DNA of 64,000 nt. It comes from an uncultured virus (IMG/VR IMGVR_UViG_2911013136_000002). Its lineage: Duplodnaviria > Heunggongvirae > Uroviricota > Caudoviricetes. The notes under the pieces are model-generated. The model was not told the origin of the DNA. It ran no database searches and saw only the letters and a list, made by a program, of their open reading frames with translations. Below, piece by piece: positions 2,901-61,288 of this stretch. The stretch lies in IMG/VR virus record IMGVR_UViG_2911013136_000002. One strand, given 5' to 3'. The first letter of the stretch is position 1; every line of letters begins with the position of its first letter. The position numbers and the translations under genes were made by a program.

Positions 2901-3659
2901 ATGAATCAATTACAGATTTTTAATCATCCGATGTTTGGGGATGTTCGGTTCGTCGAGATTAACAACAACCCGCACGCTGTTGGCAATGATGTTGCAAAAG
3001 TATTGGGGTATAGCCGACCACATGAAGCAATTTCAAACCACTGCAAGGGGGCGGTAACTTACCGCATCCTTACTAACGGCGGAGAACAAACGGTGAAAGT
3101 TATCCCAGAAAGAGATATATACCGATTAATAGTCAAAGCGGCCGATCAAAGCAAAAACCCAGAAATCAGACAGAAGGCTGAAGAATTTGAAAAGTGGATA
3201 TTTGAAGTAGTCCTTCCAACAATCAGAAAAACGGGCGGCTATGTTGCTAACGATGACTTGTTCATCCAAACCTACTTGCCTTTCGCTGATGAACAGACAC
3301 AAATGTTATTCCGCGGTATTCTTCAAACCGTCCGCAAGCAGAACGAACAGATAGCTGTCATGAAACCAAAAGCGGATTACTTTGACGCCTTGGTTGATCG
3401 GAATCTTTTGACGAATTTCCGGGACACTGCAAAAGAACTGAAAGTCAAGGAGCGGTTCTTCATCAATTGGCTTCTGCAAAACAAATTTGTTTATCGGGAT
3501 CAGAAAGGGAAACTCAACCCTTATGCGCCGTATGTGCCGGAATTATTTGAATTGAAGGAGTTTGCTCGAAACGGAAAAGCGGACGTTCAGACATTGATTA
3601 CGCCGAAAGGGAGAGAGACATTCCGGCTTCTGTTGCAAAAGGAGGGACTGGCATCATGA
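2901..3659 (+). CDS. Phage antirepressor (BRO-N + KilAC/ANT)
   Basis: FNHPMFGDVR...DVAKVLGY BRO-N motif, WIFEVVLPTIRKTGGY, KPKADYFD...ITPKG. Confidence 0.9.
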   Translation: MNQLQIFNHPMFGDVRFVEINNNPHAVGNDVAKVLGYSRPHEAISNHCKGAVTYRILTNGGEQTVKVIPERDIYRLIVKAADQSKNPEIRQKAEEFEKWIFEVVLPTIRKTGGYVANDDLFIQTYLPFADEQTQMLFRGILQTVRKQNEQIAVMKPKADYFDALVDRNLLTNFRDTAKELKVKERFFINWLLQNKFVYRDQKGKLNPYAPYVPELFELKEFARNGKADVQTLITPKGRETFRLLLQKEGLAS

Positions 3660-3934
3660 ACGTCCTCCCAGGTGATATGCAACGTGCTGCCAAACTGCTC
3701 GATTGCTGCGACTATTGCCTTGCCCGTGCTCGTGTGGCTCAGTTCGGGCGCGACTTGGACGAGGCGGAGAAATGGGTGAAGGAATTCCTTCGCTGTAAAC
3801 GCGATTGGGACGAGCTTATCAAACGGAAAGAGGAGCATGATCAATTAGTGCAGCTCGTCGAGATATTGAAGGAGCGCGGCGTGGATATTGCGGTCATTAG
3901 TTCCATCAAATTGAGAAAGGGGAATGAACAATGA
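3656..3934 (+). CDS. Hypothetical phage protein
   Basis: ATGA overlap with the upstream gene; RBS. Confidence 0.65.
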   Translation: MNVLPGDMQRAAKLLDCCDYCLARARVAQFGRDLDEAEKWVKEFLRCKRDWDELIKRKEEHDQLVQLVEILKERGVDIAVISSIKLRKGNEQ

Positions 3935-40998: not shown

Positions 40999-42201
40999 TT
41001 GGGATATTATCTCTTTTTTCTGGAGGTGTTTTTCTTGTTCGAATTGTTAGCGATCCCTGTCCTTGCTGGTTCAGCAGCAATCTTGTCCGGAGTTAAGAAC
41101 AAGCAGAAAGAGAAACGAGTAATTGATACCGTATTTCGTAATTTGAAAGTCGGAGCGGTCGAGGGGAAGGAGTTTGTCTATCCGAAACTTGTTGCAACAG
41201 AACAAAAGGACTACTGTGTGCGTTATGTGTATCGCGTACCGTTAGGGCTACCTAAAAAAGCGTTGGAACCAGTCGAAGAAATACTTGCTGCCACTCTAGA
41301 TCGCCCAGTTGAAGTCACGTTCAAGAAGTGGTTATGCATCGACATTTTCAACAACGACATTCCGGCAAAAGTGCCGTATAGCGAAGCTCCAGACATGAAA
41401 GGCTGGGTTGTGCCACTTGGCTGCAATGAGAAAGGTTGGCACTTCCACGACTTCGACAAAACTCCGCATTGTACCATAGCGGGAACCACACGATTCGGAA
41501 AAACAGTCATGCTAAAAAACATGATGACCTACCTCATCGAGCATCACCCAGAAGATGTAGAATTCCTCATACTCGACATGAAAGGTGGTCTAGAATTTGG
41601 TCGATATCGAAACCTCAAACAAGTCATCGAAGTGTCCAGCAATCCATTCGAAGCCTTTGAAGCACTGCGCATTGTCCAAACATTCATGGAGCAGCGCATG
41701 AGGGAGTTTTGCCAAAATGGATGGTCTAACATTGTTGATACACCGATCAAGAAGCGATTGTTCGTCATTGTTGACGAAGGAGCGCAGCTCGCGCCAGACA
41801 AATTCATGATAAAAGAACAAAGAGATATGCTTGCCGCATGTCAACATATTCTTGGAGAAGTTGCACGTATCAGCGGCGCTCTTGGACTCCGACTCATCTT
41901 CTGTACACAATATCCTACTAGCGACACGTTACCTCGGCAGATCAAACAAAATGCAGACCTCAAAATCACCTATCGGCTTCCTGCTGGCTACGCATCGATG
42001 GTTGCAATCGACGACTACGGAGCAGAAGAGCTTCCATCGGATATTCCAGGCCGCGCAATCGTGAAAACGCATGAATTACGCATTGTACAAACACCTTTTA
42101 TTTCCGATGACGAAATGATGAAAAGGCTGGGGGTGTACCGCGTTGCTAAAGTTAGAAAAACTCAGCGAACGGCAAATGAAGATACTATATGCTTTGAATA
42201 A
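40999..42201 (+). CDS. FtsK/SpoIIIE-family ATPase
   Basis: GTTRFGKT Walker A, LDMKGGLEF, VIVDEGAQL, CTQYP; N-terminal TM. True start may be slightly downstream. Confidence 0.9.
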   Translation: MGYYLFFLEVFFLFELLAIPVLAGSAAILSGVKNKQKEKRVIDTVFRNLKVGAVEGKEFVYPKLVATEQKDYCVRYVYRVPLGLPKKALEPVEEILAATLDRPVEVTFKKWLCIDIFNNDIPAKVPYSEAPDMKGWVVPLGCNEKGWHFHDFDKTPHCTIAGTTRFGKTVMLKNMMTYLIEHHPEDVEFLILDMKGGLEFGRYRNLKQVIEVSSNPFEAFEALRIVQTFMEQRMREFCQNGWSNIVDTPIKKRLFVIVDEGAQLAPDKFMIKEQRDMLAACQHILGEVARISGALGLRLIFCTQYPTSDTLPRQIKQNADLKITYRLPAGYASMVAIDDYGAEELPSDIPGRAIVKTHELRIVQTPFISDDEMMKRLGVYRVAKVRKTQRTANEDTICFE

Positions 42202-42751
42202 CCTAGGTGCATTAAGCCGTTCGCAAGTTCAATATATGTTCGACCTGGGAAGCAAACGTAATGCGAATCGGGTGCTGCAGTCCATACGCGATTACGTGAA
42301 CCGCAAAGCGTTAAAAGAATATGTATATTACTTAAACAAAAAAGGCGCAGAAATGATAGGTGGCCAAGTGATTGTGACAGGAAACAGCCCACTGCAGCAT
42401 ATTGTCATGCGCAACGACATCTATATCTTCTACCACTATCCGCAGGACTGGAAGCCGGAAGCGAAAACAAGGTGGAAAGAAGGTGGCAAGGAATACAGCG
42501 TTGTATCTGACGCGCGGTTCACGTATCATGGGCAGATATACTTCTTGGAAGTCGATATTCAGCAAAAGATGGCTGAGAACAAACGGAAAGTCGAGAAGTA
42601 CGCGTATTTGTTCCGATTCATACAATGCCAGCAGATCGGGGAACCAATTTTGCTGTGGTACACAGTATCTCAAGAGCGGAAAAAACGCCTAGAGAAATGG
42701 TGTAGGCAACATGAAATTCCGCATGAGGTGTTGTGTAAGCAGGATTTTTGA
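42143..42751 (+). CDS. Replication-relaxation family protein
   Basis: wHTH, HIVMRND, SDARF, FLEVD. Confidence 0.82.
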   Translation: MLKLEKLSERQMKILYALNNLGALSRSQVQYMFDLGSKRNANRVLQSIRDYVNRKALKEYVYYLNKKGAEMIGGQVIVTGNSPLQHIVMRNDIYIFYHYPQDWKPEAKTRWKEGGKEYSVVSDARFTYHGQIYFLEVDIQQKMAENKRKVEKYAYLFRFIQCQQIGEPILLWYTVSQERKKRLEKWCRQHEIPHEVLCKQDF

Positions 42752-44567: not shown

Positions 44568-44807
44568 TTGAGCAAAGTATGGTGGTCCATGCAGGATCTC
44601 AAAGAGCGTACTGGATACAGCGAGGACTGGTTGAAAGAAAATATCCTTCTTCATCCTCGCTACCGACAAATGCTTGATTTAGAAAACGGCGGTTTTGTGT
44701 ACTACCCTGAGAAGAAGGGTGAACGCTGGTGCTTCATCGCTTCGCGGATGGAAGAATTCCTGGAAAAGTATTTTCGCGACATATTCATGAAAAAGAACAC
44801 AAAATAA
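44568..44807 (+). CDS. DUF771-like excisionase-type HTH protein
   Basis: WWSMQDLKERTGYSEDWLKENILLHP...GGFVYYP...W. Confidence 0.75.
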   Translation: MSKVWWSMQDLKERTGYSEDWLKENILLHPRYRQMLDLENGGFVYYPEKKGERWCFIASRMEEFLEKYFRDIFMKKNTK

Positions 44808-45011: not shown

Positions 45012-45221
45012 CCTACCGGATCGGGAAAAACGACGACTTTATATGCTTTGCTGCGGATTTGTCAGGAAAAGTGGCATCGCAATGTCATCACCTTGGAAGA
45101 TCCGGTCGAAAAGCGGATTGACAATCTATTGCAAGTGCAGATTAACGAAAAAGCGGGAATTACGTATGCGGTTGGCTTGAAAGCCGCGTTGCGCCATGAT
45201 CCGGATGTGATTATGGTATGA
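45012..45221 (+). pseudogene. comGA: Internal fragment of competence pilus ATPase gene comGA, between the two prophages
   Basis: PTGSGKTTTLYALL...NVITLEDPVE...QVQINEKAGITYAVGLKAALRHDPDVIMV*: Walker A, Asp box and the start of Walker B of the PulE/ComGA family. Confidence 0.92.
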
Positions 45222-45282: not shown

Positions 45283-46419
45283 TTACCCACCAAACGATGA
45301 ATCTAAATATTTCTCTAATTTCAATACGGCTTCGTCCTCTTGTTTGCGGGAGACATGCAAATAAACGTCAGCAGTCATGTTTATTTTAGTGTGTCCAAGC
45401 CGGTCGCTGACTGTTTTGATATCCACTCCACTTTCCAATAGCATAACCGCGTGGGTGTGGCGGAGTGCGTGCGGACCGAATTTATTAAGATTTGCTTTTT
45501 CAGCCATATTCTCTAAAATTGAATTTATTTTCCACTCATGATACGGAACGCTGTACCGATCAACCAACACATAATTGTTAAACTGGTATCTTCCGAACTG
45601 TAATTTGTTTTTTGCTTGCCACAATTGAAATTTTTTTAATTCTTTCGTGAGCTTATTGTCCATAGAAATCACTCGGTTACTTTTCTTCGTTTTTGGTGGG
45701 AAGGTTCCGAGGTGGTTTCTATTTTTGTTTATGGCCATTAATTTATTGTCAAAATCTATGTCATCCCACGTAAGAGCTAATAACTCGCCTTTTCGTAACC
45801 CCGTACGCAGCAAAATAAAAACAGCCATGTATTCGTCAAATTCGAATGTTTTTGCCACCATCAAAAGTTTTTGTACTTCTTCTTTGGTAAGGAATTTTAT
45901 TTTCTCTTCCTCATTGCCTTTGGAAATAGAGATGCCTTGAAATTTATTCCGATCGATGATTCCATGCTCCACTGCTTTGTTTATGATCGTCATAAACAGT
46001 CCATGTATGCCTTTTACGGTACTTTCTTTTAATGTTTCTAACTCTTTATTGATAAACGCTTGGTACTGCGCTCTCGTTAGTTTTTGTAACTTGTAGTTAC
46101 CTAACGCAGGGATGATATGATTATACAATCGTGTTTTTCGTGTCTTGCGTGTGGTTTCTCGCCACTGTCCCTCATACAGTTCTAAATACTGTTCAATCCA
46201 ATCCTTTACGGTAATGTCGCTGTTTTTTACTACGTCGACATCACCAACGAACAATTTCTTCTCCACTTCCGCAGCAGCTAATTCTGCTTCTTTTTTTGAA
46301 GCAAAACCGCGTTTCGATTTTTCTTTTATTTTCCCCGTTACCGGATCCGTGTACTTTATACGATATTCATACATGTACTTTTTGGAGTTTTTGTTTTTGT
46401 ACTTTCTGATACTAGCCAT
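45283..46419 (-). CDS. Tyrosine integrase
   Basis: N-terminal arm-binding domain (KRGFASKKEA), TGLRKGE, HALRHTHA, RLGH, VYLH. Confidence 0.95.
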   Translation of the reverse strand: MASIRKYKNKNSKKYMYEYRIKYTDPVTGKIKEKSKRGFASKKEAELAAAEVEKKLFVGDVDVVKNSDITVKDWIEQYLELYEGQWRETTRKTRKTRLYNHIIPALGNYKLQKLTRAQYQAFINKELETLKESTVKGIHGLFMTIINKAVEHGIIDRNKFQGISISKGNEEEKIKFLTKEEVQKLLMVAKTFEFDEYMAVFILLRTGLRKGELLALTWDDIDFDNKLMAINKNRNHLGTFPPKTKKSNRVISMDNKLTKELKKFQLWQAKNKLQFGRYQFNNYVLVDRYSVPYHEWKINSILENMAEKANLNKFGPHALRHTHAVMLLESGVDIKTVSDRLGHTKINMTADVYLHVSRKQEDEAVLKLEKYLDSSFGG

Positions 46420-46517
46420 GATCATCCCCTCCAACGAATAAATTAAATTTTTGATACCAAAATTTCTTATTCATCTCCTCTCTAAACATTACAACGTTGC
46501 GATTATATAGGTTGATG

Positions 46518-47003
46518 TTACAAATATTTCATGTGTTGGACGCGGTTTTTTATTTGCTCTAATCGCTCCTCGCATAACTCTGGGGTTACCTTGAACATAT
46601 TGGCCATATGCTCAATTATGTGTGGCTCGTCCCAGTCAATGAACTTCAACATGTGAAAGGGAATAGCAGCATATTTCGTAAAATGATTTGCATCCCGTTC
46701 CTGTAGCTCACGAAAAGCCTCTGGCATCATGCTCTGGACTCCGACATGACGGAGAATGTGACATAGCTCATGGAAGAAGGCTTCTCGCTTTTCCTCTTTC
46801 GATAGTCGTGAGTCGACGACAATACAGCGAAAGCGGCCCACAACTTGATGTGTTGATGGAAAAGGTTTTTCACGCAAGAAAATGTTCATCGTTTGAGCAA
46901 TAAACGATGGATCGATTTGATAAGGATAAAAAATGTTTAGTCGTGTATAAAACTTGGTCACCCAGTCTTCCAACGCGGTCGTGTAGTAGCGGCGTAGCTC
47001 CAT
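46518..47003 (-). CDS. ImmA/IrrE-family metalloprotease (anti-repressor)
   Basis: FFHELCHILRH, QERDAN. Confidence 0.88.
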   Translation of the reverse strand: MELRRYYTTALEDWVTKFYTRLNIFYPYQIDPSFIAQTMNIFLREKPFPSTHQVVGRFRCIVVDSRLSKEEKREAFFHELCHILRHVGVQSMMPEAFRELQERDANHFTKYAAIPFHMLKFIDWDEPHIIEHMANMFKVTPELCEERLEQIKNRVQHMKYL

Positions 47004-47024
47004 AATTGTCCCCCTCCTAAGGAT

Positions 47025-47053
47025 ATTATAGGAACAAATGTTTGGTTTAGCAA
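47025..47053 (-). promoter_or_regulatory. immA promoter with a LexA (SOS) box in the spacer
   Basis: TTGCTA-N17-TATAAT; ggaacaaatgtttg at 47031-47044 resembles GAAC-N4-GTTC. Confidence 0.65.
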
Positions 47054-47294
47054 TAAAAAGAAAAAATCCTCTTAGTTGGAAGAGCTTTAATTTTTGTTAC
47101 GACAAATATGATAATGGGGGACGTTTTGCACTTGACCTATTTACTTACAGAAAACCGTGATAAATCAAGTTCCATTTTAGGGGGGAGTGTTGGTATGGTT
47201 TTTCGTGAAATTTAAGTAAGTATTGTTTGGAGTAACAAAAATATATATGTGATTAAATTAAAAAAAGAGCCTGCTAACGGGCTCTTAGAAAAAA

Positions 47295-47669
47295 TTATTC
47301 AATGTAACAAAACGACTGAGGTGGATGAAAGTTTGTAAATAATTCTACTGGAGAAAGGGGTTTTTCGTATTTTTTAGTTTCACGTATTTTAATTGCATAG
47401 CCTCTTTCTTTGTTTTGGAAATAAGATTTAAAACGTTCGTAGCTTATTCCAGAAGCTTGATGAGTTTTGTTCCATAAGTCCTCAATTGACTCATTTAAAA
47501 TGCAATCAATTTTAAGCTCACCAACAATTTTCCCAACCGGTTTGGTACTATAGACAACAATAGTATCGATATCTGTTTTTTTGAAGATATTTTTGCGATA
47601 TTCATATTTTTTTTCTCCACTGAAAATCTTATCGACGAACTCTGGTTTGATTGATAATAAAACTTTCAT
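47295..47669 (-). CDS. ASCH-domain protein
   Basis: LLSIKPEFVDKIFSGEKKYEYRK...PPQSFCY. Confidence 0.88.
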   Translation of the reverse strand: MKVLLSIKPEFVDKIFSGEKKYEYRKNIFKKTDIDTIVVYSTKPVGKIVGELKIDCILNESIEDLWNKTHQASGISYERFKSYFQNKERGYAIKIRETKKYEKPLSPVELFTNFHPPQSFCYIE

Positions 47670-48705
47670 TGACACCACCTAATTTAACAATTCTTTCGAA
47701 CTGTTGTTCTGTAAGCCTCATTATACCCCAATAAGCTTTTCTGTCAAGTCCACATAGTTCAATTAAATCTTTGCGAATTAGTCTTTTACTCAATGCCAAA
47801 TTGTAAGTCATTTTTAACACATATAGCTTTTTCTCATTGAAAAAGCTTGTTAACTCATTTTGATTAAAAACACTGTATTTCGAACAGTACTCTAAGAAAT
47901 CATCTAAAGAATCAAAATCATTTTTAGTTTTTAATTCTTTTAAAACGCATATTGAAGTCGCTACTGATCTATATTCTGCACGTTTTGGTATATCTGTGGT
48001 TCTATAGATGACAATTGGATCACCTGGTTTGATATCTAATACACCATCCATCAAACAAATATAGACTTTCTCTATACTATTGGTATGTGAAATATCTTTT
48101 ATCAAATCATAGCCGGATTCATTATGTAAAATCGAATCAGGGAAGAGCCTTGTATGATACTTAGGATAGATACTAAGTAAATAAGGAGTGGTATTACCAA
48201 TCGATACTAATGGATAATCTTTTAAAATATCGCCGGTGAACTTGTTTAAATCTTTTAACATTACTGACTCTGTGCCGTTACTAGTTGTTTTCCAACCAAC
48301 ATGTTCAAAACCGTACTTCTTTAGCAATTCTATAAGAGATTTGTGTTTTTCAAAAACAGTTACATATAATTCTTTTATATCATTAACAACAGCGTGATCT
48401 AGAGCTTTTTTAATAAATCGTTCTCCTAATCTTGTTCCATGTGGATTGATTTTTAGAGTGCCAATTTTAATACGTTTGTTTTTTGGAAGTGGGGGAGTAA
48501 TGTCTGTTAAAGCTTCATCCTCTATTTTTAAGTATAGAAACGCTTGAATCCCATTTTCGTCTTCATAGTAATAAGCTTTGTCATTGGCTTTTTTTCTGAA
48601 CCATTCTTCAAATTCTTTATAATCTTCTTTAAGTGAGTCGAAGAATGGATCAGATAGATTAATGTTTTTGAAAAAATCATATTTAAAGAAATCGCTTTTA
48701 CCCAT
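47629..48705 (-). CDS. GNAT acetyltransferase fused to an ASCH/PUA-like domain
   Basis: KIGTLKINPHGTRLGERFI...LLKKYGF; C-terminal LLSIYPKYH...PGDPIVIYRT. Confidence 0.75.
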   Translation of the reverse strand: MGKSDFFKYDFFKNINLSDPFFDSLKEDYKEFEEWFRKKANDKAYYYEDENGIQAFLYLKIEDEALTDITPPLPKNKRIKIGTLKINPHGTRLGERFIKKALDHAVVNDIKELYVTVFEKHKSLIELLKKYGFEHVGWKTTSNGTESVMLKDLNKFTGDILKDYPLVSIGNTTPYLLSIYPKYHTRLFPDSILHNESGYDLIKDISHTNSIEKVYICLMDGVLDIKPGDPIVIYRTTDIPKRAEYRSVATSICVLKELKTKNDFDSLDDFLEYCSKYSVFNQNELTSFFNEKKLYVLKMTYNLALSKRLIRKDLIELCGLDRKAYWGIMRLTEQQFERIVKLGGVNESFIINQTRVRR

Positions 48706-48724
48706 GTAATTTATCCCCCTTCTA

Positions 48725-49267
48725 TTAATCTATTTTTTGAATACTAAACAAATTATCAAGATAATTATGTATTGATTCATCTGGATTATTTACATCATAA
48801 ACAAAATAAGGCACTGATAATTTCTGACTAACGAATTTGGAATAATTTAACTCTATATTTTGCATCTTTTGAAGCAGTAAGATGTCATATTTTACTTTAT
48901 CTCTCTGAATAAGACGAGAATAGATTCTTTCGGGATCATCTTTTAAAACAATAATGGCTTGTGGTGAAATATCTAAAAATGTATCAAATGGAATTTGAGT
49001 TACATCTTTTTCTGGTGTTAATAAGCAAAAATGTCCATCTAAGAAAAATGGCTTATCATTGAAAGTGATAGTGTTCAACGCATTAATTAGAATATTTTGA
49101 TTGGATTGAACATCTTCAACTTCTTTTTTATCGAATTGTTGTTTCTTGAATTCTGAAATTAAAGAACTACAAGAAAAATGTTCTGTATTGTATTTTTGTT
49201 TTAACTGATTACAAAAATAACTTTTGCCTACGCCGTGTATTCCACCGACAAAAATAATCTTTCGCAC
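48725..49267 (-). CDS. P-loop nucleotide (NMP) kinase-like protein
   Basis: IFVGGIHGVGKS, FLDGHF, IYSRLIQRD lid motif. Confidence 0.8.
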   Translation of the reverse strand: MRKIIFVGGIHGVGKSYFCNQLKQKYNTEHFSCSSLISEFKKQQFDKKEVEDVQSNQNILINALNTITFNDKPFFLDGHFCLLTPEKDVTQIPFDTFLDISPQAIIVLKDDPERIYSRLIQRDKVKYDILLLQKMQNIELNYSKFVSQKLSVPYFVYDVNNPDESIHNYLDNLFSIQKID

Positions 49268-49539
49268 AAAAATCTCCCCTTATTAAGAGTGTGCAAAGTT
49301 ATTTCATATTCTGTGATTTTATTCTTCGAGCGCTGCTGAGGTTTAAATAATTTGTTTTATTTCCCTTAAGCAGTATTCGATTGATCCTCAATACTATCCC
49401 TCCCATAAAATAATAAAGGCATCTAAAATAAACAAATGCGCCTGTTTATCTTAGATGCCTTATCCTAGATGCATTAATCTTTTTTATTTTTCTCTTTCAG
49501 AAGTAATGATTATTACTTTAATAAAGGTCCTCTTGACAT

Positions 49540-50898
49540 CTATCTTTCACATGCATAACCATCTTTGTCTCTATCCATCTTTGGCTGATAAGCTGGATGG
49601 CTCGATGGAACTCCGTTTGGATAAACTTTTCTCAGTTCTGTACAGTTTGCAAAATACTCATTTCCTCCACTAGATGCAGGTGTGCTGGTATTGTTTGTAT
49701 TACTGTTCGAATCGCTATTTGAACTGCGACTTGAGCTACTATGATTTGAGCTACTATTTGAACTGCTGCTTTTAGCTGATGATGACGATGATGAAGCAGT
49801 GCTGCTGTTAGATTGTTTTGGATCTAAATCGCCCTTTGTGGTTCCATATTCACCGTATGCCCACAATCCTTTATTTGCCTCGCGTGCTTCACGAGCGAAC
49901 TTTCTGAAGTAATCAGCATATTTTACATCAGGCGGGTACGTAGATGGTTCTGCGTATCCGTTTAAGACAAGATCGGCATTAAACATTTTAGAGCGAATTT
50001 CTTTTTCACTCATATCATCATTCGGAACTTGCAGCCAAACGATTCTCAATAACCGGCCATATCTGTCGGTTTCAGAAACATCTTTTTGCAGCCAAACTGT
50101 TTTTCCAGCTAGTTTCGAAGATGTATAGTTACTTGCTTCTTTTCCATATTGTTCATGTCTAGTTGTTGATTCTGGCGTATTCACACCGATGAGACGAACC
50201 TTTCTTCCGTCGGTAAGTTCGAAAGTGTCACCATCGACGATTCTCGCAACAGTTACAGCTTCTAAACGAAATTTTTTCGCAAGGTTTTCTTGTTGTTTCT
50301 TAGCAGCTTCTTGCTTTTCTTGTTCTTCTTTTTGCGCTTTTTGTTTTTCTTCATCATTATTTACAGATGCAGTAGCTGCCGGTACAACTTTGCTATCATT
50401 GTTTTTATTTTCTTCACTAGCTTCTTTACTGGTTTCTTGTTTACTAACGGTTTTTTCAGATTTTGCTGTTTCTATTTGAGGTTGAGGCGAGATCAATAAA
50501 AAGATAATAGATAATACCAACGAAGCAGCTGTAATACCGGAGAATCTTTTCCACATTACATTTTTCCGGATAAGCATAACTATTGTCGTAATTAAGAAGT
50601 ATACGAATGAACAAAGTAATAAACTGGCTAGAGTATAGAGTGGTTCCTTAAAAGAGAACCAAAACAGTGCAAGGAAAAATCCATTCACTATAGCAAAAAC
50701 AGGCCAATACAGTGTAAGGTTGTATTTTGTTCTTGCAAATGAAAAATAAAATCCAGCAATAACAGCAACAAGTCCTAATACTCCTAGGATGTTCAGAACA
50801 GTCCATTTCAAGATTTGATAAATGACAGAAATAATAATAATCAACAACAGTAATGAACCAATCGTACCTTTACTCTTATTCCTTGCCAATTTCTTCAC
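49540..50898 (-). CDS. Membrane-anchored thermonuclease (SNase) with Excalibur domain
   Basis: About 5 TM segments; IVDGDT, VRLIGVNTPE, DRYGRLL; C-terminal NCTELR...DRDKDGYACE. Confidence 0.92.
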   Translation of the reverse strand: MKKLARNKSKGTIGSLLLLIIIISVIYQILKWTVLNILGVLGLVAVIAGFYFSFARTKYNLTLYWPVFAIVNGFFLALFWFSFKEPLYTLASLLLCSFVYFLITTIVMLIRKNVMWKRFSGITAASLVLSIIFLLISPQPQIETAKSEKTVSKQETSKEASEENKNNDSKVVPAATASVNNDEEKQKAQKEEQEKQEAAKKQQENLAKKFRLEAVTVARIVDGDTFELTDGRKVRLIGVNTPESTTRHEQYGKEASNYTSSKLAGKTVWLQKDVSETDRYGRLLRIVWLQVPNDDMSEKEIRSKMFNADLVLNGYAEPSTYPPDVKYADYFRKFAREAREANKGLWAYGEYGTTKGDLDPKQSNSSTASSSSSSAKSSSSNSSSNHSSSSRSSNSDSNSNTNNTSTPASSGGNEYFANCTELRKVYPNGVPSSHPAYQPKMDRDKDGYACER

Positions 50899-51128: not shown

Positions 51129-51572
51129 TCAATCTTCGGTGTCTTCACTTGCTGCTTTATTCTTTTCTTTTGCCTTATGAACAACCCACTCGAAGTGTTT
51201 TATGATCTCCTCAATCTCTTCCTCCGATAGGCTTTTCCACTTCTCGATATCGAAGAAGCCCATTTGTTCAATGCCGTATTTTTTGATGAGCTGATTAATT
51301 TTTGCAAGCGTATTTAATTCCTCTGGAATATCATCCGTTTCTGGCGGATTTGGATTATCCGTGCGACCGAGGAGGTAGTCAGCACTAACTTCGAATAAAT
51401 CGGCTAATTTATTTACCGTGTCTAATTGAGGTTGTTTAGTGCCCCGTTCATACGCTGTATATGTTGTTCGTGCTACCCCAACAAGGTCGGCGACATATTC
51501 TTGAGTCCACTTTGGGTTTTCTTGTTTTTTCTTCTCGCGTAAATGTTTTAACCTTTCTCCAAAGGTTTTCAT
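51129..51572 (-). CDS. ImmR-like XRE repressor
   Basis: FGERLKHLR...TQEYVADLVGV...YERG...DYLLGRT. Confidence 0.9.
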   Translation of the reverse strand: MKTFGERLKHLREKKKQENPKWTQEYVADLVGVARTTYTAYERGTKQPQLDTVNKLADLFEVSADYLLGRTDNPNPPETDDIPEELNTLAKINQLIKKYGIEQMGFFDIEKWKSLSEEEIEEIIKHFEWVVHKAKEKNKAASEDTED

Positions 51573-60436: not shown

Positions 60437-61288
60437 ATGATGAAGAAACATTTGGTTACATTAGATAACATAGAACTGGATGCAGCTTATTACAAAATAA
60501 ACGATTATATTTCGTTGGAAAAATATCCAAATCATGAGACGAGAACAATAATGGTTACTAACGACGATGTTGGAAATAGGTTTGAATCGAGCGGGTTATT
60601 ATTCTATACAGCACTACGTTTGGCTTTACCAGAAGTAAATGTTAGGGTTGCAAGATGCAGCTTATCTTGTGACGATAGCTTGTATGAAGTGTTAAAATTT
60701 TTTAATACAGTGCTCCTTAATTTTCACGCAGTAAAAGATGACAATTTTAAGGTTTATGAAACACATGCAGTATTAACATTAGAGAAGATAGAACGACTAA
60801 AGCGTATTCATGAAATAGCGATAGAAGTTAATAGGAAAAGAATCGAAGAAAGAAAGGCAGGGAACTTTGAACATACTAGATGGAGATACGCGTACGATCA
60901 GTACATAAGCGCATGCTCGAATCCATTGTTAGAAAGCAGTATTATGCATCTTATCACTGGATTAGAGTCATTACTTGTTAAAGGAGATACCTCTTTATCA
61001 CATAAGTTATCCCTTCACGCAAGTTTATTGCTAAAAAATGATATTAATGAGCGAAAAGAAATATATAACTTTTTAAAAAATATTTACAATGTTAGAAGTA
61101 AGGCGGTACACGGAGAAATTAAGGAATTGGTTAAATTATTGTCTAAACCAGATATATATGACAAGTATTTTAAACTAAAAACAATTTTTGTGGAAATTCT
61201 GTTAAAAACATATGGACTAGATGAAGAATGCATTTTTAGTCGTTTAGATGAAATCGTGTTTATGGCTCCTTCTTTTGATAAGGTGTAA
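60437..61288 (+). CDS. HEPN (Apea-like) domain protein
   Basis: LITGLESLL...IYNVRSKAVHG, an RxxxxH motif. Confidence 0.8.
   Translation: MMKKHLVTLDNIELDAAYYKINDYISLEKYPNHETRTIMVTNDDVGNRFESSGLLFYTALRLALPEVNVRVARCSLSCDDSLYEVLKFFNTVLLNFHAVKDDNFKVYETHAVLTLEKIERLKRIHEIAIEVNRKRIEERKAGNFEHTRWRYAYDQYISACSNPLLESSIMHLITGLESLLVKGDTSLSHKLSLHASLLLKNDINERKEIYNFLKNIYNVRSKAVHGEIKELVKLLSKPDIYDKYFKLKTIFVEILLKTYGLDEECIFSRLDEIVFMAPSFDKV

Follow-up and report, generated by a model that had tools for sequence, protein, structure and literature searches.

The window analysed here, a stretch of 64,000 nucleotides (nt) from the uncultured Caudoviricetes virus IMGVR_UViG_2911013136_000002, carries in a prophage lysogeny region three adjacent, co-oriented genes for a P-loop kinase, an acetyltransferase (GNAT) fused to a PUA-like barrel, and an ASCH protein. 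Judged by its sequence matches, this trio is a kinase-containing member of the catalogued (PIN-)GNAT-EVE + ASCH family, which PADLOC lists as candidate system PDC-M11. The arrangement itself has already been described computationally, and the function of the family stays at candidate level. The reading favoured here, which we consider rather probable, is that the cassette, expressed from the lysogeny region, works as an abortive-infection or superinfection-exclusion module of toxin-antitoxin type, in which the GNAT-PUA protein would be the toxin, the ASCH protein its neutraliser and the kinase a modulator. The domain architecture, the strict linkage of the genes, and their residence both in hotspots for phage morons and in defence islands are matters of direct observation. 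The three genes are the following.

48725-49267, minus strand: gene 1, predicted P-loop kinase of nucleoside monophosphate (NMP) kinase fold (AAA_17), 180 amino acids (aa), GTG start
47629-48705, minus strand: gene 2, GNAT plus PUA-like (EVE/ASCH-superfamily) barrel, 358 aa; candidate toxin (GevT-like, PDC-M11A)
47295-47678, minus strand: gene 3, ASCH protein, open reading frame of 127 aa; candidate antitoxin (GevA-like, PDC-M11B)

A PADLOC search, which had been proposed as a check in the original prediction made from this DNA, matched both PDC-M11 models at full length. The 358-aa protein matched the PDC-M11A model PDLC04419 at E 4.5e-152, with residues 5-352 aligned to positions 10-357 of a profile of 357, and also PHROG 6345 at E 7.9e-145; the ASCH protein matched the PDC-M11B model PDLC04425 at E 3.1e-51. 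Profile matches with E values down to the first of these exclude chance open reading frames. The family was described by Bell, Wolf and Koonin (2020, BMC Biol 18:159, PMC7641849) as a GNAT that has an EVE domain fused to its C-terminus and in many cases a PIN domain at the N-terminus, in operons that contain an ASCH protein in "almost all" cases and "often" an AAA_17 ATPase. These authors, who present the modules as uncharacterised and predict them to be toxin-antitoxin systems, trace both the first description and the proposal of DNA base acetylation to Iyer et al. (2013), and themselves raise aminoacyl-tRNA as a possible target, by analogy with GNAT toxins (PMC7641849). They also state that the form lacking PIN is common in prophages, with the stress on those of beta- and gamma-proteobacteria (PMC7641849), and the prophage residence of the window copy matches this form. 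The window trio has the same three proteins in the same adjacency as these operons and PDC-M11. It differs in lying in the lysogeny module of a Bacillota prophage, in carrying the optional kinase, and in having a consensus promoter of its own before the ASCH gene, but there is no essential difference between them.

A tblastn search of 50,697 phage records found homologues in 16, among them eight Escherichia phage records at 48.9% identity; others were Salmonella SopEPhi, Lactobacillus Lj965, Lacticaseibacillus P7.1, a phage of Enterococcus, a contig associated with Helicobacter, and the archaeal virus Methanothermobacter psiM100. In Escherichia phage PhiR47_2 (PV340567.1), whose larger protein is 48.9% identical to the 358-aa protein over 97% of its length, the large gene is followed by an overlapping ASCH gene and the pair stands beside a phage repressor gene, directly downstream of cI, much as in the window; unlike the window trio, the E. 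coli pair (L001) has no kinase gene. The PhiR47_2 proteins are annotated "GevT toxin" and "GevA antitoxin", and we would guess that 'Gev' stands for GNAT-EVE. A Bacillus locus (L108) repeats the order of the window, with a helix-turn-helix (HTH) gene, the cassette, an M78 gene and an integrase gene. Elsewhere the surroundings vary: the SopEPhi pair lies between gpA/DinI-like genes and the portal gene Q, and the Lj965 pair (L088) lies after four tRNA genes and before terS. The Lj965 tRNA genes, for Ser, Glu, Tyr and Phe (3319-3894 of that locus), are immediately upstream of the GNAT-EVE/ASCH pair, and would be interesting neighbours if tRNA were the target of the acetyltransferase. The gene that follows ASCH in Lj965, Ljo_0306, was considered as a possible kinase and set aside, a profile scan having shown that it is not a member of the kinase family.

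Among the 17 Bacillota loci examined, the cassette was just upstream of terS in four (L008, L010, L050 and L065). Other loci are in Tn7-like elements, or beside GmrSD, AbiEii-like, MNT/HepT, RES, McrB-like and SNF2-PLD genes. One search returned 3316 relatives of the 358-aa protein, and the E. coli allele is present at 99% identity or above in 275 of 5426 complete genomes, always at full length and always on the chromosome. With these settings, the PDC-M11 matches and the GevT/GevA annotation, the suggestion in the original prediction of an anti-phage or toxin-antitoxin system is in agreement. A separate group of loci (L067, L068, L069 and L079; also L139-L141 and L143), from Paenibacillus chartarius, P. 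validus, P. haidiansis and Cohnella thermotolerans, gave identical or nearly identical profile scores for kinase, GNAT-EVE and ASCH proteins, whose genes have TnsA and RES-domain genes for neighbours; it looks as if the cassette has recently spread by horizontal transfer of a Tn7-like element.

The linkage of the genes was assessed from both ends. In the forward direction, an alignment of 25 homologues of the 358-aa protein gave 186 genomic loci, of which the best 80 were kept and joined by three loci from a single-protein search and three phage records, making 86 GNAT-EVE loci that were scanned with hidden Markov models (HMMs). In the reverse direction, a kinase alignment gave 432 loci, of which the best 80 were kept, and those with no GNAT-EVE HMM match were scanned with Pfam and PADLOC models. 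Both sets are best-scoring subsets that share about a dozen genomic regions, and close relatives are over-represented in all the fractions that follow. Every one of the GNAT-EVE loci (86/86) had an ASCH gene next to the GNAT-EVE gene, whose 3' end it overlapped in nearly all cases. A kinase gene was found in 24 of the same 86, 19 of these being Bacillota by their record titles; it may stand upstream as in the window, downstream of the ASCH gene, between the other two (L044), or on the opposite strand (L072, L076, L080, L082 and L085). A kinase-like match in L002 was dropped from this count, being at E 6e-4, 2 kb away and on the opposite strand. The original prediction had taken the three genes to belong together, and they do recur together in other genomes.

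The reverse set gives the complementary picture. GNAT-EVE and ASCH HMM matches were both present in 59 of the 80 kinase loci, and one further locus has a GNAT-EVE gene that runs into the end of the contig; 17 have an ASCH gene with no GNAT-EVE HMM match, and three have neither. All 17 of the ASCH-only loci carry a different GNAT, namely a T5orf172-GNAT-PUA fusion of about 505 aa in 12 (L099 has it in two parts, and in L100 it is cut short next to an HNH gene), a GNAT of 165-181 aa standing alone in four, and a GNAT-ASCH fusion in one. The totals are thus a GNAT gene in 77/80 and an ASCH gene in 76/80, within a few kb of the kinase gene, in loci that span Bacillota, Cyanobacteria, Proteobacteria, Bacteroidota and one archaeon, with the gene order shuffled and the adjacency kept. 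The cassette can do without the kinase, which 62/86 GNAT-EVE loci lack, but the kinase almost never occurs without the cassette. The 77/80 figure puts a count on what is a qualitative statement in Bell et al. (PMC7641849), and such near-exclusive association means that any mechanism must give the kinase a role.

Two kinds of locus met in these scans deserve separate mention. The T5orf172 variant (L090-L094, L101, L102, L103, L105 and L106, mostly from cyanobacteria) consists of the T5orf172 (GIY-YIG-like)-GNAT-PUA-like protein of about 505 aa, then a longer ASCH protein of about 171 aa, with the same kinase; it is missed by the GNAT-EVE HMM and is weak on the PDC-M11A models, and its ASCH protein gives a weak DUF3850 match in the scanned loci L090 and L100. 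The idea that ASCH and kinase may pair with alternative toxins, such as the HNH protein of L100, was rejected, given that L100 contains a truncated T5orf172-GNAT gene and the HNH gene looks inserted. The other is a locus in a Planctomycetota metagenome-assembled genome (L152, 4531-6695, minus strand), where a 329-aa GNAT-ASCH fusion with an ASCH domain of PDC-M11B type stands beside a dCTP-deaminase-like (DCD) gene and the kinase gene; this is one locus only, but it hints at a connection with cytosine nucleotides.

At the level of fold, structure prediction, Foldseek and Pfam bore out the domain assignments made from the DNA alone: an NMP-kinase fold, a GNAT with a barrel of the PUA/ASCH superfamily, and an ASCH protein. 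In the 358-aa protein, the AlphaFold2 model (pLDDT 85.5) places the GNAT domain at about residues 1-152 and the barrel at about 175-345. Against Pfam Acetyltransf_1 the protein scored 20.2 bits, the cutoff being 20.7; the profile of the GNAT-PUA family found PaiA (1tiq) in the PDB at 6.2e-5, and in Foldseek the GNAT half of the model matched PaiA and Naa10/Naa50. The barrel half matched ZmASCH (TMt 0.74) and the modified-base-binding N-terminal domain of Thermococcus McrB (6p0f). The alignment of 25 homologues has 65 invariant columns, clustered in the GNAT acetyl-CoA loop, whose sequence HGTRLGERF is invariant or nearly so, and in the barrel; both domains are therefore under selection. The name "GNAT-ASCH fusion" first given to this protein is correct at superfamily level and goes too far in detail, for in a Pfam scan the barrel matched neither the EVE nor the ASCH model; the modelled fold is PUA-like, and the label EVE is taken from Bell et al. 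(PMC7641849). Common descent of this barrel and the ASCH partner was also considered and dropped: the folds alone are similar, and an hhalign comparison gave a probability of 4.4% and E 0.0094, so that common descent is not shown by sequence.

The ASCH protein matches Pfam ASCH at E 2.3e-6 and is homologous over its full length to ZmASCH of Zymomonas mobilis (PDB 5GUS/5GUQ; E 5e-14 with the single sequence, 3.3e-21 with the profile). Five residues of the ZmASCH cleft, Arg32, Tyr47, Tyr90, Gln127 and Ser128, correspond to R25, Y40, Y83, Q118 and S119, which are invariant in the window ASCH family; ZmASCH Lys53 aligns with a Gly, a Lys being found one position on. ZmASCH cleaves single-stranded RNA in vitro in a Mg-dependent manner (Kim et al. 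2017, PMC5615036). According to a review, another ASCH protein, YqfB, hydrolyses N4-acylcytosines, and it was to YqfB that the original prediction looked for an eraser. That analogy lost its main support: a search of all PDB sequences with the ASCH family profile, at E<=10, returned the ZmASCH entries and two weak unrelated matches (0.016 and 0.84), and YqfB (1TE7) was not found. At the GxKxxExR-type motif the window ASCH family has Glu where YqfB has, as we take it, Thr.

The third protein, the kinase, matches Pfam AAA_17 at E 3.9e-18, with a weak dNK match. Its family alignment has as invariants the Walker A motif GGIHGVGK(S/T), an LDGH motif, an RD pair in the lid region, and E139. Its AlphaFold2 model (pLDDT 91.9), which is of NMP-kinase fold, matched archaeal adenylate kinases in Foldseek (TMq 0.76, E 1.9e-10), and the family profile matched AK1/AK5 at 2e-8 and UMP/CMP kinase at 2e-6. 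The protein lies below all NCBIfam equivalog cutoffs, the best score being 26.4 bits against a cutoff of 155 (adenylate kinase PRK04040), followed for dTMP kinase by 20.3 against 83; compared with the housekeeping NMP kinases (adk, cmk and tmk), it shares the common fold only.

In the proposed mechanism, the 358-aa protein would act as a toxin, its PUA-like domain attaching it to a nucleic acid (tRNA or some other RNA being the likeliest) and its GNAT domain acetylating the bound target or a group that this carries, so that growth stops. The ZmASCH-like protein, whose gene overlaps that of the toxin and is translationally coupled to it, would prevent the toxin from doing harm in lysogens that are not infected, whether through direct binding or through action on the same RNA. 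The NMP-kinase-like protein would be a dedicated but dispensable accessory, tuning triggering or neutralisation through a nucleotide or a phosphorylation step. The toxins AtaT, TacT and KacT, each about 170 aa long, stand alone and have a ribbon-helix-helix (RHH)/DUF1778 antitoxin encoded upstream. The cassette resembles AtaT/AtaR, TacT/TacA and KacT/KacA in that a GNAT is proposed as a growth-arresting toxin beside a small neutralising protein, but, unlike those systems, its GNAT is fused to a PUA-like barrel and has a downstream ASCH partner. An observation that may bear on the role of the ASCH protein comes from transposon-insertion sequencing in Pectobacteriaceae (PMC13566846), in which the ASCH gene Dda3937_01763 of a Dickeya prophage is reported as essential; it is two locus tags away from the essential C1 repressor gene Dda3937_01765, and its essentiality is as expected of an antitoxin.

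Several points weigh against the toxin-antitoxin reading. The cassette has neither the small stand-alone toxin of the known GNAT toxin-antitoxin systems nor an RHH antitoxin, there being no RHH gene in the unit. No chain described as a GNAT toxin was among the Foldseek matches listed for the 358-aa protein, and its nearest GNAT structures are PaiA and N-terminal acetyltransferases. Physical contact between GevT and GevA is hypothetical, and these names are a GenBank annotation behind which no paper was found in the literature searched. The Dickeya ASCH gene would speak directly for an antitoxin if the gene beside it encoded a GNAT-EVE protein. The authors of the ZmASCH study state that its cleft lacks acidic catalytic residues (PMC5615036), and, as the cleavage was seen in vitro only and in a cleft of that kind, ZmASCH does not settle the chemistry of the ASCH partner. 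The toxin-antitoxin model leaves the role of the kinase unexplained, and the locus fractions carry the bias described above. In the literature searched, PDC-M11 appears only within lists of predicted systems, and no experimental study of PDC-M11, GevT/GevA or GNAT-EVE with ASCH was found. To that extent the original prediction was right in not recognising an experimentally characterised system, although the arrangement had been described by Bell et al. (PMC7641849).

The original prediction itself pointed to another scheme, with a writer, a reader or eraser and a nucleotide kinase for base or nucleotide acetylation. Here the GNAT-PUA protein would acetylate a base, for example at N4 of cytosine, whether in a free nucleotide or in DNA or RNA; the mark would be removed or read by the ASCH protein, and the kinase would phosphorylate the nucleotide substrate or product, with self/non-self marking or a toxic nucleotide as a possible outcome. 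DarTG, a toxin-antitoxin defence system in which the toxin modifies nucleic acid and the antitoxin enzyme reverses the modification, follows a similar writer/eraser logic; it has no homology to the window trio. The scheme accords with the base acetylation proposal of Iyer et al. as given by Bell et al. (PMC7641849), with the reported binding of modified bases by PUA-like, EVE and YTH domains, with the NMP-kinase fold and UMP/CMP kinase matches of the kinase, with the Planctomycetota GNAT-ASCH fusion and kinase beside a dCTP-deaminase-like gene, and with the reported activity of YqfB. Yet the ASCH profile leads not to YqfB but, apart from the two weak matches, to a reported ribonuclease, which leaves reversal by the ASCH protein unsupported; the kinase is missing from 62 of the 86 loci, and the core chemistry therefore cannot need it; many family members have N-terminal PIN or T5orf172 nuclease domains, which suggest cleavage of RNA or DNA rather than reversible marking; and the cytosine link comes from a single locus. 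We accordingly consider such a scheme unlikely, its chemistry being pure conjecture. A more elaborate form, a three-enzyme acetylation circuit, seems distinctly improbable: on sensing infection the GNAT-PUA protein would write an acetyl mark (such as N4-acetylcytosine) on a cytosine nucleotide or on tRNA or rRNA, the marked species would be removed or cleaved by the ZmASCH-like protein, and the kinase would make or destroy a nucleotide that gates the response.

It is also conceivable that the genes serve counter-defence or lysogenic conversion, the phage-borne GNAT-EVE protein modifying nucleic acid of host or phage so that the phage is protected, from restriction for example. A counter-defence role was raised by Bell et al., who suggest that the GNAT-EVE form lacking PIN may protect phages against host restriction-modification systems (PMC7641849), and their suggestion counts against a toxin-antitoxin role too; the position just before terS, and not in the lysogeny module, in Lj965 and in four of the 17 Bacillota loci fits such a role. 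Against it, the genes of the window and of PhiR47_2 adjoin the repressor gene and are co-oriented with it, many copies are outside prophages, in Tn7-like elements and beside defence genes, PADLOC lists the family as a defence candidate, and the PhiR47_2 record speaks of toxin and antitoxin; we regard it as a poor prospect. That an ordinary nucleotide kinase and two independent morons merely happen to lie side by side could be argued from the 62 GNAT-EVE loci that have no kinase and from the housekeeping adenylate kinases that are its closest structures. This is scarcely credible, because it is contradicted by the co-occurrence counts across phyla, both for the kinase (77/80 with a GNAT gene, 76/80 with an ASCH gene) and for the invariable ASCH neighbour of GNAT-EVE, and the kinase scores far below the equivalog cutoffs (26 against 155 bits).

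The toxin-antitoxin reading supposes expression from the lysogeny region, and the layout of the locus is given by the following features.

45283-46434: tyrosine integrase gene, flank of the cargo region
46518-47003: Peptidase_M78 gene, ImmA-like, flank of the trio
47265-47286, minus strand: terminator-like hairpin and T-run (7-bp stem with 4 GC pairs, then TTTTTTTAATTT), directly after the ASCH stop codon
47720-47747, minus strand: sigma-70-type promoter consensus TTGACA-16 nt-TATAAT, 12/12 positions, within the 3' end of gene 2 and about 50 nt upstream of the ASCH start
49416-49461, minus strand: terminator-like 20-bp hairpin, 3' of the upstream SNase gene, between the SNase gene and the trio
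51129-51572: HTH_3 repressor gene, ImmR-like, other flank of the cargo region

The original prediction had described an AT-rich, co-oriented and intact trio between immA and immR, and this was confirmed: the open reading frames are where they had been placed, the M78 and HTH_3 genes flank them, and the GC fraction is 0.28-0.32 across approximately 47000-49500, compared with 0.38-0.48 on either side. All three proteins align with their homologues from end to end, so the trio is intact. It looks like a single transcription unit, since the two terminator-like hairpins bound it. The GTG of the kinase gene is preceded by the Shine-Dalgarno-like AAGGGGAG, the 19-nt spacer from the kinase stop to the GNAT start contains AGAAGGGGGA before the ATG of gene 2, and genes 2 and 3 overlap by 41-50 nt. 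The ASCH gene probably has its true start at the ATG at 47669 (124 aa, MKVLLSIKPEF...) rather than at the GTG at 47678, as 33 of 34 aligned family members begin with a start of this type.

The promoter consensus inside gene 2 could give the ASCH gene a separate transcript, by analogy with some toxin-first toxin-antitoxin loci. It was rejected as a feature of the family, the full 12/12 match being unique to the window copy: the best match elsewhere was 10/12, found in two of the 85 related loci, which is equal to the result for a control window in mid-gene. Since it is not conserved in these 85 loci, it may be due to chance or to local adaptation.

The cargo region as a whole consists of four genes in two units, the trio and the SNase gene. 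The latter (49540-50898, minus strand), between the trio and immR, encodes a membrane-anchored SNase (thermonuclease) of 452 aa with a C-terminal Excalibur domain and a long Ser/Asn-rich linker; the protein matches the PADLOC model C3a212 (SNc+LTD) at E 5.7e-26, and DNA about 80% identical to the gene is present in Aeribacillus phage AP45 and Anoxybacillus phage A403. Among phage DNAs, the nearest matches to the window come from Geobacillus, Aeribacillus and Anoxybacillus phages, and on this account the host looks like one of the thermophilic Bacillaceae and not like B. subtilis, which had been put forward as the host for expression.

Outside the cargo region, a fragment of 57 aa from a type II/IV secretion ATPase (T2SSE; covering positions 169-217 of the 370 in the profile) at 45048-45221 on the plus strand adjoins the integrase gene, and beyond it, at 44568-44807 on the plus strand, lies a gene for a DUF771 protein of 79 aa. 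Because the fragment adjoins the integrase gene, it suggests that the prophage was inserted in, or beside the remains of, a ComGA/PilB-like gene. The same fragment is the one instance found of the damage that had been attributed to many neighbouring phage genes, in a partial check that did not include a systematic pseudogene survey. FtsK/SpoIIIE-family and Replic_Relax genes (40999-42751, plus strand), between the left-hand block of phage structural genes (approximately 14500-39000) and the integrase gene, look like the remnant of a small integrative or conjugative element, so that the window may hold two or three adjacent mobile elements. In the early region of the prophage, an open reading frame of 283 aa (60437-61288, plus strand) gives a weak Apea-like HEPN match (E 3.1e-5), and could be another RNase-type defence or toxin gene.

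The cassette thus belongs to a widespread family that has no tested function in the literature searched, and to this family the window adds a clean Bacillota example that includes the optional kinase and lies in the cargo region on the repressor side of a temperate phage. A three-enzyme circuit, if true, would be a reversible, DarTG-like form of immunity based on acetylation, and would give a bacterial ASCH/PUA writer-eraser pair its first biological role. If the toxin-antitoxin reading is true, the family would provide a GNAT toxin with a new targeting domain, together with a new kind of antitoxin.

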